Assembly: GCA_035084275.1 (NCBI GenBank)
Contig: CM068743.1
Location: 73,036,001-73,100,000, forward strand
DNA length: 64,000 bases
Source: Hydrolagus colliei
Lineage: Eukaryota
Direction of reading: 5' to 3'
Shown piece by piece: positions 1-9,800 of the stretch (position 1 is its first letter; every line of letters starts with the position of its first letter). A model generated the notes under the pieces. The model did no database searches. It was not told where the DNA came from and saw only the letters and a program-made list of their open reading frames with translations. The position numbers were made by a program, and so were the translations under genes.

Positions 1-675
1 GATAACCACTTCTCAAAATTGGAATGAGGTGACCTTGTAATATACAATAACAACTTGCATTTATATAGCGCCCTCCACATAGGGTAGTCTCTCACAGCAC
101 TGTATAGAGTGAAGATTTTCTTTCAAATGTAAAACTAAAATCCTATTCATCTTCTGTGTTCAGAAGAGATGGAGAGAGGAGGAGGGATGAGTGTGAGGGA
201 TAGGAGTACGAAAGTGAGAGGAAGTGGAGGGGTGAGACGGAGAGGATGAAGAGAGAAAGAGGAGAGAGAGATGGAGGGGGGGAAAGAGTGGATACAGAAT
301 GGATTGAGAATCAGTCACAATATTTCATGACAATAAAATTTTGACGGTTGATGAAACTTGGAAAATCCTTAAATTCAGGCCTTCCCTGGCAAACAATCTT
401 GCTGATAAAATTGGTCATTCACTTCTTGGCTGTTCGTGGGACATTGCTATGTATAAATTGGCTGCTGCATTAGCTTACAAAATACAATTACTATTTTTGA
501 TAGTGAAGTCCTGTGAATTGCTTTAAAACAACTTGATGTTGTGCAAGAATTCTTATCACTTCAAAGTTGTTAATTTCCTGCAGTTATTAAAAAGTTATGA
601 CAGGTTAAGACAAGCTAGGTAGAGCTTTGGGTCCCCCTCGACGTACTGCCTTCCCTGATTGCTCTGTGTCCACAG

Positions 676-838
676 TTCTTGTTGAAGCAGCGAATCACCT
701 GAACAAGACGCTGGGCAATGATGTAGCTCTGTCCAACAGCAGCCTGCGGAGGCTTCAGAGGGAAATCAATAACATGATGGACATGCTGCGGCAGAGGACG
801 TTCGACCAATCTAAGGCAACATCAGCGAACGAGCTCAA
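676..838 (+). CDS. LAMA1: LAMA1 exon (LVEAANHLNKTL...SANELK)
   Basis: cacag| ... |gtaagt; phase 1 to 2; coiled-coil peptide. Confidence 0.85.
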
Positions 839-3800
839 GTAAGTTCAAAACTGAGGACTTGCACTCAGCAGTTGCCTCTTATGCAGGACAGCGTCACAGG
901 GTCGGAGATTATGTGGACTGGGTGTAGCTTTTGGAAGAGACGGTTGGATTAAATCTATCGAACAGAAACTGTTGATTCTTTCAAATGTAAACCAAGTTTA
1001 TTATAGGAAATAATATCTTGGGATACAGTATATGAACAGTTCAGGACATGACACATGCATGGTCGAGTATTTCCTATGTTCCTATAAATCAAAACACCAA
1101 GGTTGTACCACAATCTCAATGAGTTGCAGTGAGCAGCTAGGGATGAGTTGCAGTATGGAGGCTAGGTATGATGGCAATAGTTTGGTTGACGTTTCAGATG
1201 AAGAAAGTTGAGGCTCAAAGTGGAGTCTGGTAGCTCAGTGGTTAGAGCACTCACCTTACAAACAAGAGACCAGGGTTCAATTCAGGGTGAAACCTTGGGT
1301 AAATTTTCTTAATCTACACACTTAACAATAATCCCTCAAAAAAAATAATGAATTGGTCACTCAATCCGCGATCTGTTTGTGGGACACTTCTGTGTGCAAT
1401 TGGCTGCCGTGCTTCACCCACAAATACACAGTCAATTAACTTTACAGTATATTCCATGAAACACGTTGAGACGCCTAGAAGATGTGAAAAGCGCTATATC
1501 AAATGCAAGGATTATTATTATTAAAGTGATTTGGGAGTCCCTGCACATCTGAAAATTGGATCAAACAAGGAAAACGCTTAACTCCATTTACGTGTATAAA
1601 CAGTTCACCCTTGTTGGTGCTTTTTGAGGGTGATTTGCCTTATAAATGTGGCAATTTTTGCACTATCATTCTCAACACCCTGTGTGCATCTTGAAAGCTG
1701 ACGAGACTATATTTGTGGGCGAAAAGCAGCATCAATTGCACACAACAGTGTCCCACAAACAGTGTGGATTGAGTGACCAAATAATTTTTTTTCACAGATT
1801 ATTATTAGATGTGTGGAGTAAGGAAACTTGCCCAAGGTTTTGCCCTGCCGGGAATCAAACCCAGGTCTCTCGCTTGCGAGACGAGTGCTCTAACTGGCAT
1901 CAGAGAACAGATTAGAGGGAAGAAAGAGAGAAATATGAATTGCGTTCTCAGGACTGGATAGTAGGCTATCCAGTCGAAGAAATAACGCTTTGAGATGTTA
2001 GTTTAAGTGAAGTTTCCTGTATAAATGGAAGTTATTTATCAGAGCATAGCATATCTTTCAGTGTCATTTTGTTGGTTAGCTAGGGGATTACAGCTCTACT
2101 GAAGGTGACTTCCATCACTAGGCTGAAGTACTGTTCGAGCGATGGGAGCAATTTTCAGGTGATTGAATTCAGAGCTTTGTGTTTGTGAGACTCATACTGG
2201 CACAACATGAAGCACATTGGCCTTAGGTGTGATTCAGCATCGGTGGCTGAGTAAACCCAGCAGCAATTACTGATCTCACTGAGCTCCAGAACAAGAGGCA
2301 AAATCTTAAACACCTCAAAGCTAAGCCAGTTAAAAGCGAGTCCAGAAATAACTTGCCAAGAAAGCAAGGTTATTTCTGCTCACAAACGCTTGTGAAAATG
2401 TAGGTGTAAAGCCTTAAGTGTGTGAGGAAGCTACAGATTGGAATTGATTGAGCTGTTTTAAGGTTATATTTGATGCCTGCATGGGAAGTAGGATTACAAT
2501 GCAATTGCAACACAAATGTGCATTTATATACAACATGTGATATGGTATTAGTTAAACACTCGGGTGAGGCGGAGTGAGGGATGATATTAAAGGGTGCGGG
2601 TAAAAAGCAGGAGAGTGGGATTAAAGTGGTCTAGACATTGAACTAACTCCAAGTGATTAGAGTTGGATGGGAAAGTGCTTGGGTGGTTGTCCAGTTAGGA
2701 TGAGATGAAATCATGAGGTGACAGCCTTGTTTATTCGAACCACTCTTGTGCCACGATGATCCCAATTGCCTCTTTCTTTGTCGCAAATCTGGTAGGTGCC
2801 TGTAGTTTTAGTGCAAGGTCCGAGGTAGGAAAATAGGATCAAGAGGAGGCCTTTCAGCCCCTCGAGCCTGCTGTGCCATTCTATTGACCAACAACAACAA
2901 CTTGCATATATATCGCACCCTTTACGTGGGGTAGCATCCTGCATCTGTACCTCAACTCCCATTTAACCACCTTTGCTCCACATTCCTTGCTACCTTTACC
3001 TAAAAAAAATCTATCCAACTCAGTCTTGAAAATTTGAATGGATCCCGCATCCACAGTCTATTGGAGGGTTGGGCAGGGACAGAGTTCCAGGTTTCCCCTA
3101 TGCTTTGTGTGAAAAAATGCTTCGTGATTTCAGTCCTAAAATGGTCTAACTCTAATTTTAAGATTGTTTGTATTCCTCCACCAGAGGGGGAGGGAGAGAG
3201 CTCCTGATTTCCACTACCGTTTAATGCGTTATGTTGTGTAGTTCAGAGACTTCCTTCACTGGAGGCCCACAAAGCTTTTCCTCTTAAATCCTATGCAACT
3301 GTTTGACATCCAGTATTGGTTGGTTGGTTGGTTGACTGACTGACTGATTGACTAATTTATTAATTCATTGACAGAATGATTGATTGACAGACTGATCAAC
3401 TGACAGACTGATTGATTCATTGATTCTTTGATTCATTCATTCATTTACGGACTGATTAATTGATGGACTGATTCATTAATTGATTGACGGACTGATTCAT
3501 TGATTGATTGATCGATCGATTCAGAGCGGCAGAGCAGCTCCTGGTACGGGTGCAGGCGGAGTTCCAGAAGCCTCAACGGGAGCTGGATGAACTGAAAGCC
3601 CAGATTGAGGAAATCCTAGCCCAGCGCAGCGTAGAGCTGCATGAGGCCCAGGACCTGATGAACGAGGCGCTCACAACAGCCAACGAGACCAGCCAGCTCA
3701 TCCGCAGCATCTCCAGCAGCCTGGCGGAGCTGAAGGTGAGAGGAAAGTGTATGACATAACCCCTAAAAGTATCATCTTGGCTCAATCAATAGCTGTCCAT

Positions 3801-6800
3801 CACCAAGTGGGTTTAAGGGTCCACATCAAGATTTTGCTGCAACTGCTATAATCCTCTACTCTGTATAATCCCAATGCTGGGGATGTGCTGTTTTGTTGGA
3901 AGTGCCATCCTTCAGATGAGGTGTTAAACCGAGGCGCCATCTGCTTGACCAGGTGAGAGTTAAAAATCTCGTGACACTATTTGAAAAGAGAAGGAAGATT
4001 CTCTCAGTGTCCTGGCCAATAATACCTCAAATAGTCCTTCAGGACTAAATGTAGCCCTTCACTTCATGGCTGTTGATGGGACATTACTATGCTCAAACTG
4101 ATTGTCTCGTTTGCCCGCAAATACACAGTCACTTCGCTTCACGATATATCCTGTGAAGTGCTTTGGGATGTCCTCCCGACATGAAAGGCACTATACCAAT
4201 GCAAAGGTTATTATTATTATCATTCAGGTGCACATCAACAATCCCATGTCACACTACTGGAAACAAGAAGGGAGTTTTTCCCGGAGTTTCTGGCCAATAC
4301 TCCTCCTTGAAAATTCTTGTGGATTTTCTCTTTAAATCCATCAATTTAAAATGTTTAAATCGTGCAGAATATTGTTACATCCTAATTTTGCAAACTGCCT
4401 TTCTACAGTTCTTTCCCACTGACTTCTAGACTAACACTGAATTTTAAGAATTATTGCACAATTCTGCACAAGGTGAAATGTTAATATCCTGGTAGTGAGG
4501 CAGTGGTATTGGTATGAGTCCATTTTGTTGGGCCTCTGATTGATAAAACAAGATGAGCCAGTCTTTGAGACGTCAGTCGGGGATGCTTTTGCTCTTGTGG
4601 TAACTCACGCGCCAGACTGTTCAATGCACAGGACAAGAGGCAGAATATTGAAGAAGACAGGGCACTAGCTTTAACTCTGGTCCAGGACGGAAGGGAAATA
4701 GTGGACAATGCAGCAAGAGTGGCAGAAGACGTAGTGAGCAAGACGGCTGTAAGTATCAACTTAGCATCTCCTTTTATTCCTTCAATTTTCCAACCAGAGA
4801 AGGTTCGGAAACTGATCAAAAGCAAGGATTGCTATTATGATTATTATTATTATTATTATTGTGTGTGTGACTGTAGGTTCTGGAACAGCACAAGGAAAGG
4901 CTCTACATGTGGAACACTAAGGTGAGGATGCATGTGGACAAGCTGGTAATGGAGATGAATCAGAAAGGGGTGCTCGATCTTGTCTACAGGGCAGAGGATC
5001 ACGCTGGTCACCTCAACAGCCTGGCCAGTCAACTGAACAGGTCAGTCTACATTTCAGATTGGTCCATCTATTCAACTCTAACACAGGGAAAGCTTCACAG
5101 TGAAAGCACTTCACTGTGCTAGAGTTCTCTCACCCATCATCATAAAAGGTCAAAAATGCAAAATACTGAAGAAGCTGGAAATCTGAAACAAAAACAGAGA
5201 TAGCTGGGAACACTCAGCAGGTCAGGCAGCATCTATGGAGTAAAGAAAGTGAGTCAGTGTTTCGGGTCTACGACCCTTCGTTGGAACTCAGAAACCCATT
5301 CTGACGAAGGGTCGTGGACCTGAAATGTTGACTCACTTTCCTTTCTCCATAGATGCTGCCTGACCTGCTGAGTGTTCCCAATGATTTCCGTTTTTGTATC
5401 ATAAAAGGTCAAACCACCCCACTCCACCACCACAAAGTGTTGGCCCACTATCCGAACGTGTCTGCTGACTCACATAGCAGGTCACACCCACCTCCTCAAT
5501 GTAACAAAGCACAACCGTTTAGTGTTAGGGAGTGAGATAACATTCTGACCCTCTTACCACGTGACAGAATTGTGTGTGAAAGCCCAGACTGGCAATCGCT
5601 GGAGTGAAACCTTCCCTGTGCTAGAGTTCTTTCAGGCATAAGGAACGTGTCGGTGAAATCCAGGGCAGTGGGGAGCGAGGAGCCGAGTGTGGAGGAGCTG
5701 CTTGAAGAAGCTGAAGCTGTTATATTAGAAGCCCAGAGCAAAGCGGATGCTGCATTGACATTGGTGAGTTATTGGCTGGTGGAGCCACAGTCTGGTCTAG
5801 AGCTCAGAAAGACCAGCTGATAAAATTAGTCGGGCTGAGAATGCAACTCTTACAAGCGTTAGTTACTTTGGTTTGTCGCTAACCAACCAGTTTAGAATGA
5901 AGATTGTGAAATTTGAAAGGAGCTTTGAGTTGGCTCAAATAATTGGCCACAAGCAGCTTTGAGCAAAACTGTTCGGACAAGGCTATAGATCCTCTGGGAA
6001 TAGAGGATTAACTCTGTTTGCTCCACTCTTGTGTTCAATGGCTCCACCTCTTCTGTGCTGAGTGTCATTGTGGATTGTCTTCACTAGGCCTCTGGCTCAC
6101 AACACTCACTTGAGAAGGCCGGGAAGGAGTCAGCTGAGCGCAGTACCAAGCTTCTGAATGACGCAAACAAATTAAGACAGAAAACCACTGGTGAGTTACT
6201 TATTTGGTTTAGGTGCGGAATAGAAAAACTCTTCATTCCTCACTGATGTGCGAGTTACAACACACTATTCCTCCTTAGTGCTGTGGTCAGTATCACTGCT
6301 TATCATGTGGGAGACCAGAGTTCAATAATTTCCTATATAGGATGGCAGCTAAGCAAAGAACCAATTGGCCTTTCTACCAAAAGCATTTCTCTATTAATGC
6401 AAAGGACCAGTTAAGGAAAACTTTGAAGTTCAATCCATTTTTAAAATCCTATCCTGTCCTTTCCAATAAAACCATACTTTTATTACTCTTATAATAAATT
6501 TAGGAGTATTGATTTTGTTTTACCCATAAATCCACAGTTAATCCACTTCCAGTATATCCTGTGAAGCACTTTGAGACATCTCAACAACAACAAAATTACA
6601 CTGGTATAGCGCCTTCATGTCAGGAGGACATCCCAAGGCGCTGGACAGTCACTGTGTCAGACAACATGATGAGGCACAAATCTTTGCTCAAATGCAAAGA
6701 TTATCATCGTTATTATTATCGATGGTGGGCTAGGAACAAAGACTGAAAGTAATGTTGCGTTCATTCTGTAGGTGTGTGTTTGTTTTAAACAAATCAAGTT

Positions 6801-9800
6801 AGAATTTATGGTATTTGAAAATACCCTGGATGATACTGAATGCCAAAGGATAATGCAGATTTGGGAAAGGCATTATGTGCCATCACAGAGCACAGGCAGA
6901 AAACTGGCAACCCATCAAACGAGGCTGGTGATCAGGGGAATTGTGTTTACCTAGCTGCGGGAATTGACTCCCATCCAATTACTTCCATATGCTAATATGT
7001 AAATCCGCTTTAAGGATTCAGCGAGACTAGTGTTTGATTTTCAAAGTCGCTGAAGATTATCCCATTAAGGACAAGATCAACAAAATGGGCTCCTCAGGGA
7101 AGCAGCCACTAATACGCTATGTCAGCTGAATACCTCTCAACAAAGAACTGCCTCAATCCGGTCAGGAACAGGCATGGAGTCCTGTAGCTCAGTGGTTAGA
7201 GCACTCGCCTTACAAGTGTGAGACCTGTGTTTCGAATCCAGGCAGGTCAGAGCGAAACCTTGGGCAAGTTTCCTTACTCCACACGCCTAATAATAATCCC
7301 TCCCAAAAAACCTACAATAAATACGTCATTTCAATCCACAACTGTTTGTGGGACACTGCTGTGCGCAATTGGCGGCCGCGTTTCGCCCACAAATATATAA
7401 TCAATTCACTTTACAGTATATTCCGTGAAGTGCTTTGAGACGTCTAGAAAATGTGAAAAGTGCTATATCAAATGCAAGGATTATTATTATTGTTATGGTT
7501 ATGAGGATATGGGCAAAAATGCAAAATATTGCAGATGCTGGAATCTGAAACAAAAACAGAAATCGCTGGAAACAAAAACAGAAATCGCAGCATCTATGGA
7601 GAAAGGAAAAGTGAGGCGAAGTGAAAGTGGCTCACTTTACCTTTCTCCATAGATGTGTACCTGACCTGCTAAGTGTTCCCAGCAATTTCTGTTTCTGTTT
7701 TATGAGGATATGGGCAGCTGGCTGTTGATGGCGTTGGAACCTGTTTCACTGGGATCACAGGAATATCATCAGGGAACGCAACCAATCTGGATAGGGTTAT
7801 AACATTAACAGTGATAAATAATAATAACCCTTACATTTGATATAGCACCTTTCACTTCAGGAGGAGGATAGTTCAAATACAGTGACTGTATTTAGGTATA
7901 TGAGCGTGGCATCCAATTGCACATAGCAATGTGCCACACGCAGCCAAGCAGTGACTGACCAATTTTATTTATCATAATAAACCTCACATTTGATATACCA
8001 CTTTTTCACATAATTGAAACTTCTCAAAACGCTTCATAGGATACTTTGGTTATTTGGGGTTCTGTTGGTGAGGAGAGGACATGGGGAGAAATTCCCATCT
8101 TGTTTCGAAAAGTGCCACGAAATCTGCAACATCCACATGAACATTGGCTTCTGAGTTGGAAGGTTGTGGGTTCAAACTCCTGGGTTGGAATTTGTCTTAT
8201 CGGAGCTACCATCTTTAAGATGAGATGACAAACCAAGGTCGCTCCTGCCTGGTCAGTGTTCAGTATCTCCTGGTGAATTTCCAACAATTCCCCCAGGGTG
8301 CTTGAAGTGGGAGGGGGACAAATGGGTTTCCGTGGCAAGAAACAGTCAATACACTTGACAGCAATGTCTGTGAAGCATTTTGAGAAGTTTCAGTGAGAAA
8401 GGAAACAATAACAAAGCCAAGTTCTTTTCTTCTTTCCCAACCGGACAGGTCTCGCAAACCAGGTGAACGGGCTGAAGGGGAAGATCGATGCAATTCGGAA
8501 GAGCACCCGGAACATGAGCAGACATCTGAACGGGCGCCTGCACACGATAGCTAACTTACCCAATGGTCAGTCCACGTCTTTTCACGGGCAAATTGAGGAG
8601 TTCCTTAGTGTAGTGGTTAGCAAGCGAGAGGACCTGGGTTTGATTCCCAGGAAGGGCGAAACCTTACGCAATTTCCTTGCCCCACATGCCTCTGCCAGTA
8701 GGAAGGAATCCGTTTGTTGGTCACTTGGCGGATCGCTTTCCTGGAGGTAAACTAATCCCTACGAAAAAAATTGGGGGTCTCGTAATACCCAACTGTTTGT
8801 GGGGCAATGCTGTGCGCAATTGGCTGCTATGTTTTGCCCACAAAATACAGTGTCAATCCACTTTACAATAAGTGGGTGCTCAGTACGCTAGGACACTGCT
8901 GTGGTATTGAAAAATATGGCCACTCAATGAACTGCTGCTGACTAACTCATCAGAAGGATTTGGATGGGCAGACCAGTCACTTAAGGCATGGATTCTTCCC
9001 TTTCAGCTCCCGATAGCCTAGCAAGTGAAAGCCCTATTCAGGCGGAGCAGCGGGTAGCTTGCCAGGCAGCGTGGGAGAAAGTACTATTTATATATAAGTT
9101 AGTTTAAGTGACTGCAATTGACGAGTTTGCAATGCAGCCATTTTTCTTGTGTCCGTACGGCACAGACACCACAGCGAGGGTGCAGCAGGCGAAGGAGAGC
9201 GTCGCCACAGCCAATTTAACAACTGCCATCACATTGGATGAAATCCAGGGGCTGAGCCTGAGGCTGCTGAACGCCTCAGGCACCTTGGCCCAGGTCAACG
9301 AGACCGTCAGGAAAACAAATGAACTCATCAACCAGTCGGCAGAGACAGGTGAGCGCGAGGGGACAGGCAAATTGAGGAGTTTCTTAGCATAGTGGTTAGC
9401 AAGCGAGTGGACCTGGGTTCGATTCCGCAAAGAAAAAGAAAGCAACCAAATCCCAACCCATTGCTTTTGGTAAAAAATGGTTTCAACGTTTTCACACCGG
9501 TGGTTACAGAAAGGTAGATATATTCAGCACAGGAATTTCTTCAGCTCATATGTGGAGTCCATAGCGTACGTAGTATGTAGTCCGCTCGCCTCGCAAGCAA
9601 AAGCATTCAGGTTCCCGGACAGTCAGAAACCTTGAGATTTCTTACCCCACACTCTCCTGTTTACCTAGTAGGAAAGTACTGTAGCAACATAATTGTTTTG
9701 TCAATTAGATCACTCTCCAGGAGTAATAATCCCTTAAAAATAAGTTGGTTGCTCAATCGATGACTGTTTGTGGGGACATTCCTGTGCGCAATTGGCTGCC

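Follow-up and report, generated by a model that had tools for sequence, protein, structure and literature searches.

A hairpin insertion of about 243 bases, bounded by positions 5139-5413 of the window (the whole stretch analysed, 64,000 nucleotides of Hydrolagus colliei contig CM068743.1) and lying in an intron of a laminin alpha-type gene, very probably consists of two short hammerhead-bearing pLTR ends of an RT + GIY-YIG Penelope-like element (PLE), set head to head between a 16-bp TSD and produced in what is likely one insertion event with both cut strands priming reverse transcription. The priming from two strands is suggested by the anatomy of the DNA together with in vitro results on an anole PLE protein, for which cleavage and extension of both strands were seen, with synthesis beginning at two internal sites that bound the tail (PMC11167929). 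Positions in the pLTR are counted from the ribozyme base C3 (= 0), the cleavage site being between +28 and +29, and the features are as follows.

5139-5154 (+): left copy of the TSD, 16 bp, the last 4 nt of which also match the element end (direct-repeat comparison).
5155-5187 (-): tail, a 3' extension of the pLTR of about 33 nt on the left arm only, about +101 to +133 from C3 (arm alignment; tail as described in PMC8557442 and PMC11167929).
5188-5288 (-): left arm, a pLTR piece from A(-4) to about +100 (arm alignment).
5251-5288 (-): minimal type I hammerhead of the left arm, damaged by changes at U4, G5, G16.2 and U16.1; pairing is possible in helices I and II.
5289-5294 (no strand): copy-specific spacer, whose first base is the extra G seen before A(-4) in 23/57 arms.
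5295-5397 (+): right arm, a pLTR piece from about -7 to +97/+101, without tail (arm alignment).
5297-5334 (+): minimal type I hammerhead of the right arm, damaged, with C11.1 and C15.2 as U (CpG decay) and helix I down to 2 pairs.
5398-5413 (+): right copy of the TSD (direct-repeat comparison).
7514-7700 (no strand): second family insertion in the window, an inverted pair cut further, whose arms begin at +31 and +28, with a left-arm tail and its own TSD.

The two copies of the direct repeat (5139-5154 and 5398-5413) are identical at 16/16 positions, and a matching 16-mer would flank the element by chance with a probability of about 2e-7. The inverted arms (5184-5286 and 5299-5401) are 103 nt long and 85% complementary, and the element folds as RNA at -161.9 kcal/mol (z = -18), none of 200 shuffles folding equally well. 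Counted from C3, the left arm extends to +133 and the right arm to about +97 to +101, which leaves a one-sided extension of 32-36 nt. A direct recomputation of the repeats, the fold and the strings upheld what the preliminary description had seen, namely a 16-bp TSD, long inverted arms, a one-sided extension of about 35 nt and a hammerhead in each arm, and the hammerhead strings it quoted were found at 5301-5334 (+) and 5289-5250 (-). Helix I of the left arm, which had been called intact, can pair, but its fifth pair, with the G of GAGTT, does not belong to the element, long copies having C there. The right arm is defective, as was also said, but in more than its loss of helix I, given that C11.1 and C15.2 both read T; its hammerhead retains CUGACGA and GAAA. 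Compared with the subfamily majority, the left arm with its tail has 11 differences over 137 nt, and the right arm has 6 substitutions and lacks the G at -3. The copy had been judged probably inactive, and both ribozymes are indeed damaged; the different losses noted in the two arms are ordinary decay, mostly at CpG, and no complementary loss of parts. The window copy itself is ordinary decayed repeat DNA.

The laminin alpha-type gene around the element (window 609-9392, +) shows Laminin_I at 609-839 and 3508-3756 and Laminin_II at 9108-9389, and the likely exons flanking the element's intron lie at about 4877-5040 and from about 5625; a PDB search with the neighbouring exon gave no match. Just left of the TSD, 5074-5090 and 5110-5126 form a short palindrome, whose arm recurs at 5604-5628 across the likely splice acceptor that follows (the arm matches 3 times in the window vs 0.02 expected); these arms could pair across the intron. 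The window also holds more than 20 copies of an interspersed repeat of about 320 bp (e.g. 1218-1523 and 7174-7496).

In regards to the origin of the arm, a search of the genome with a PLE RT query yielded two groups, an intact one near contig ends and a dispersed one. At 13 of 20 RT loci from the dispersed group the arm lies on the same strand, 341-759 nt downstream of the RT/GIY-YIG match, and it is absent in the other 7; the Penelope origin proposed in the preliminary description, which had suggested looking for adjacent RT/GIY-YIG ORFs, was borne out by these loci. Alignments continue unbroken past the ORF stop, across a pyrimidine-rich UTR and on to the ribozyme and arm, the window's subfamily included, and long copies of that subfamily extend into the GIY-YIG coding part (4/20 by same-strand tblastn, more by DNA match). 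Upstream of the ORF, arm and tail continue into a shared ORF start in four of the five copies examined (L100, L108, L109 and L111, not L110). Since the same repeat stands behind the ORF and runs into the ORF start, the window arm is, on these alignments, identified as the pLTR of an RT + GIY-YIG PLE of the same genome. No RT coding sequence was seen inside the window, nor an intact ORF of the pLTR-donor family among the loci examined. Longer homologs of the partner RT piece bear RVT_1 and GIY-YIG, Pfam left four single frames of broken partner copies unmatched, and among named homologs ray proteins come closest to the partner RT (60-64%). The RT-EN linker of L099 carries the C-x4-C-x2-C motif common to Neptune and Nematis (PMC8557442), and by this motif the partner would be a PLE of Neptune or Nematis type.

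Intact 783-aa GIY-YIG/RT elements were also considered as the partner and were rejected, the arm matching in 0/30 of their loci and in none of four 10-kb stretches. They make up a young PLE family of their own, whose intact RT + GIY-YIG ORFs are arrayed in tandem with a period of about 5.5-6.6 kb (e.g. L031-L064, at C38:25-66 kb and C21:18.68-18.71 Mb), and most of 40 GIY-YIG matches lie near contig ends. The 3' region of this family is CCCTAA-rich (55 in 10 kb), and no hammerhead core was found by regex in the four 10-kb stretches; it may be a PLE that bears an endonuclease, is associated with telomeres and lacks a plain hammerhead.

When the window element was used as query against its own 1.0-Gb genome, 4289 first-look candidates were obtained, of which 40 were scored. 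Sixty 10-kb stretches taken at round positions held 18 insertions, or 30 per Mb (95% range 18-47), which extrapolates to a family total of roughly 30,000 insertions; about half of the 18 are inverted pairs and the remainder single arms. Besides subfamily A, there is a younger subfamily B, with 40/40 scored matches identical over 66 nt and the cleanest junctions (L226-L255), and an older subfamily C (L285-L303), which has a different helix II loop and a first helix II pair A-U and whose arms likewise stop 5' at the edge of the ribozyme. A metagenome motif scan gave one unrelated-looking match, which was set aside.

Loci L001-L255 and the window provided 297 arms (275 unique) and, from these, 74 unique inverted pairs in which both arms reach +80 and start before +60 with a gap of -30 to 120. 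The tail is on one arm in 69/74 pairs, on both arms in 3 and on neither in 2, a ratio biased by the many loci chosen with tail-bearing queries; the partner arm, which was unselected, is nearly always tail-less. One tail per pair is also seen in 29/31 pairs from loci not chosen with a window query, and in all 4 pairs that passed the strict filter in the unbiased 600 kb. Arm ends cluster at +132 and +99, with a median offset of 32 nt, and spacers of at least 6 nt are all distinct (37/37). A TSD score of at least 8 was reached by 47/74 pairs, vs 2% of 400 mismatched flank pairs, the lengths being 9-17 bp with a mode of 14 and 71% A+T; no clear TSD is present in the other 27 pairs, and a clear one in only 6/21 single arms. 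The family had been described as retro-mobilised with long TSDs, and the lengths agree with this, being neither short nor fixed as in DNA MITEs. We rejected a DNA-transposon MITE, as the TSD is variable, the ends are asymmetric (one tail) and there is no common internal sequence. In 71/74 pairs the two arms are of one subfamily. The tail arm reaches 5' up to -242 and the short arm up to -135, and because each can extend further 5' than its partner, neither arm is simply a copy of the other. Taken together, the one-tail rule, the distinct spacers and the 9-17-bp TSDs point to a palindrome that is likely made anew at each insertion.

A plausible course of events would be that the PLE protein cuts the target with a stagger of about 14-16 nt, and that its two 3' ends prime at different sites, one at +132 (the outer start, which leaves the tail) and one at +99 (the inner start). 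Each cDNA would be about 100-135 nt long and stop where the ribozyme begins on its 5' side, a point that is likely the RNA's 5' end, and repair would join the two via a short filler. The product would be a dead end, since a transcript of either strand should fold into a long hairpin in which the ribozyme is hidden, and the palindrome is likely not mobile by itself. Among the points that weigh against this course are the 27/74 pairs without a clear TSD, the 5/74 pairs that depart from the one-tail rule, the upstream pLTRs of near-full-length copies that begin elsewhere than at -4, and the greater likeness of arms within one insertion, which also fits fold-back copying or conversion. The mirror arm could in that case have come from self-primed fold-back copying of a single cDNA or an antisense template, with the same pLTR origin, as proposed for Adineta elements (PMC3846280), an explanation that we consider improbable but that has some evidence in its favour. 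Arm divergence is lower within than between pairs (0.088 vs 0.111 in subfamily A and 0.025 vs 0.052 in B, equalled in 0/2000 permutations), TG precedes A(-4) in 16 arms, as helix I fold-back would add in subfamily A, and arm L079 matches the prediction for several further bases. However, the next predicted base is present in only 4/16 TG arms, spacers are up to 46 nt long, the short-arm end at +99 is also an end of single arms, and the tail-less arm may hold 5' sequence that is missing from the tail arm, and vice versa.

The 5' ends of the arms form a wall at the edge of the ribozyme. Among 100 arms from loci not chosen for their 5' end, 44 end at -7..0, 32 at +1..+26, 5 at +27..+33 and 19 past -7, and loose ends pile at the same site in an independent contig set and in the reads of a related organism. 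Ribozyme-cleaved RNA was rejected as the main template, there being no 5' peak at +29, and this absence agrees with the uncleaved RNA reported as template in PMC11167929. A spliced exon 1 ahead of the ribozyme was likewise rejected, since upstream of -6 nothing is common to 81 arms. At -5, a position that is C in the element, 23 of the 57 arms having A(-4)G(-3) carry an additional G. The bases around A(-4) fit the initiator consensus. An untemplated G is a mark of capped RNA in L1 and SVA copies (PMC4859970), the Penelope of D. virilis has an internal promoter within its pLTR (PMC2377424), and the place where the 5' ends of the arms pile up may be the start of the RNA. It is even conceivable, though we hold it as a tentative reading that falls a little short of an even chance, that the stubs are strong-stop products of a capped PLE RNA starting at A(-4), the first base of helix I, the enzyme starting inside the 5' pLTR at two sites, one per cut strand, running off the cap and often copying it as the extra G. 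Against this stand the upstream pLTRs of four near-full-length copies, which begin at +56, +84, +38 and -128 and in no case at -4, and the fact that fold-back on helix I predicts the same extra G.

As for the ribozyme, the majority base is canonical at every core position, CUGANGA / GAAA / UH, in 131 subfamily A arms and 57 B arms, so that the core conservation expected in the preliminary description is present in the family. The core is intact in 32/92 A arms and 25/37 B arms, and the ribozyme as a whole in only 3/92 and 8/37, respectively. Changes cluster at CpG sites, the catalytic G8 and G12 among them, and outside CpG the core changes at about the rate of the downstream sequence (0.055 vs 0.042 in A; 0.021 vs 0.032 in B), which indicates neutral decay of the genomic ribozyme copies. 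The helix II covariation that had been looked for was also recovered, the first pair being A-U in 64/69 subfamily C matches (both bases left free) vs G-C in A and B. In helix I, U-G becomes U-A in subfamily C (17/19), subfamily B has U-G in place of C-G, and 97% of the helix I and II cells are paired in a hand-picked set (n=20). The covariation in the helices thus appears thin but real, with one true double change only. Helix III of the family is a palindrome, ACGU, and minimal hammerheads with a palindromic helix III cleave weakly as dimers (PMC4209133; review PMC6765202). In the fold of the whole window element the helix pair probabilities of the ribozymes are 0.0 on both strands; they are also about 0 for the isolated window arms and for one intact copy in wider context, which makes the folding test a weak one. 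The modelled hairpin transcript of either strand would hide the window ribozymes. RNA reads of a related organism come from both strands and are without a start or end peak, and so speak neither for nor against cleavage.

The view, put forward earlier, of a non-coding family that moves as a palindrome is not supported. A non-autonomous mobile unit (retrozyme- or MITE-like), spreading whole by ribozymes or a transposase, could account for the high copy number, the intact majority core and the similar length and ends among the best matches, but we regard it as very unlikely and already largely refuted. The 37 spacers compared are all different, the window junction occurs once in the genome at <=2 mismatches, the TSD varies in length, and single arms and ORF-bearing long copies have the same ends. 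Moreover, the ribozymes of the two arms stand on opposite strands and base-pair with one another, so that the predicted hairpin would mask both. Retrozymes, for their part, are direct tandem repeats (bioRxiv 10.64898/2026.07.22.740005), and a non-LTR retrozyme was rejected as the window copy and the tabulated pairs are inverted. That the host uses the window copy as a hairpin, either as a miRNA precursor or as an intronic regulatory RNA of the laminin gene, is hardly credible despite its very stable fold, its place in an intron and its weak miRNA-model matches, given that both arms differ by 6-8% from the majority like other copies and that these matches fall far below the gathering thresholds. 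The latter come from an Rfam scan of 4600-6000 at E <= 10, which gave only such sub-threshold miRNA hairpins; the hammerhead models, recommended earlier as a check, were unmatched.

Inverted pLTRs with a one-sided tail and TSD are already published, and so are minimal PLE ribozymes. The scheme of Adineta Pen2a and the EN+ PLEs (PMC3846280, PMC8557442) shares with our pairs the head-to-head 5'-truncated pLTRs, the tail of 30-40 nt on one end, the TSD and an RT with C-terminal GIY-YIG. The TSDs are 8-10 bp in Adineta (PMC3846280), in contrast to 9-17 bp here, and unlike the EN+ PLE insertions as far as these accounts describe them, the ORF-less two-pLTR stub is a main product here (about half of the 18 random insertions) and the 5' ends pile at the ribozyme 5' edge. 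The hammerheads resemble the minimal ones of PLEs (Cervera and De la Pena 2014, PMC4209133) in the CUGANGA + GAAA core, the extra base ahead of helix II, G10.1-C11.1, the 4-bp helix I and the palindromic ACGU instead of helix III, and the same paper noted motifs on opposite strands 100-700 bp apart. The candidate ribozymes here differ from them in the 5-bp helix II, the cleavage triplet GUU and the older subfamily with its A-U first helix II pair. Poseidon PAc of Anolis (Frangieh et al. 2024, PMC11167929) is alike in its two RT start sites delimiting the tail, the extension of both strands, the AT-rich targets and the uncleaved RNA as template. Its ORF starts in stem II, whereas here the ORF starts after the tail, and neither ORF-less inverted stubs nor a 5' wall are described for PAc in the available parts of that paper. 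Non-LTR retrozymes (bioRxiv 10.64898/2026.07.22.740005) are likewise non-coding, hammerhead-bearing and PLE-derived, but the stubs differ from their direct repeats as inverted pairs with unique junctions and TSDs. In the papers searched, no specific account of ORF-less pLTR stubs in cartilaginous fish was found.

How PLEs form inverted ends and tails, and what the hammerhead does, are still open questions in the accounts of PMC8557442 and PMC11167929. The roughly 30,000 insertions are a natural record of this process, with one tail per pair, a 32-nt offset, a stagger of about 14 bp, a 5' wall at the ribozyme and a cleavage site without a peak, and the features of the stubs are direct predictions for the existing in vitro PLE system. 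Such stubs are also liable to be mis-annotated as MITEs or miRNA hairpins. If the strong-stop reading is true, tens of thousands of stubs would map the start of the PLE RNA and would provide evidence, in vivo, that priming by both strands on uncleaved RNA is obligatory.
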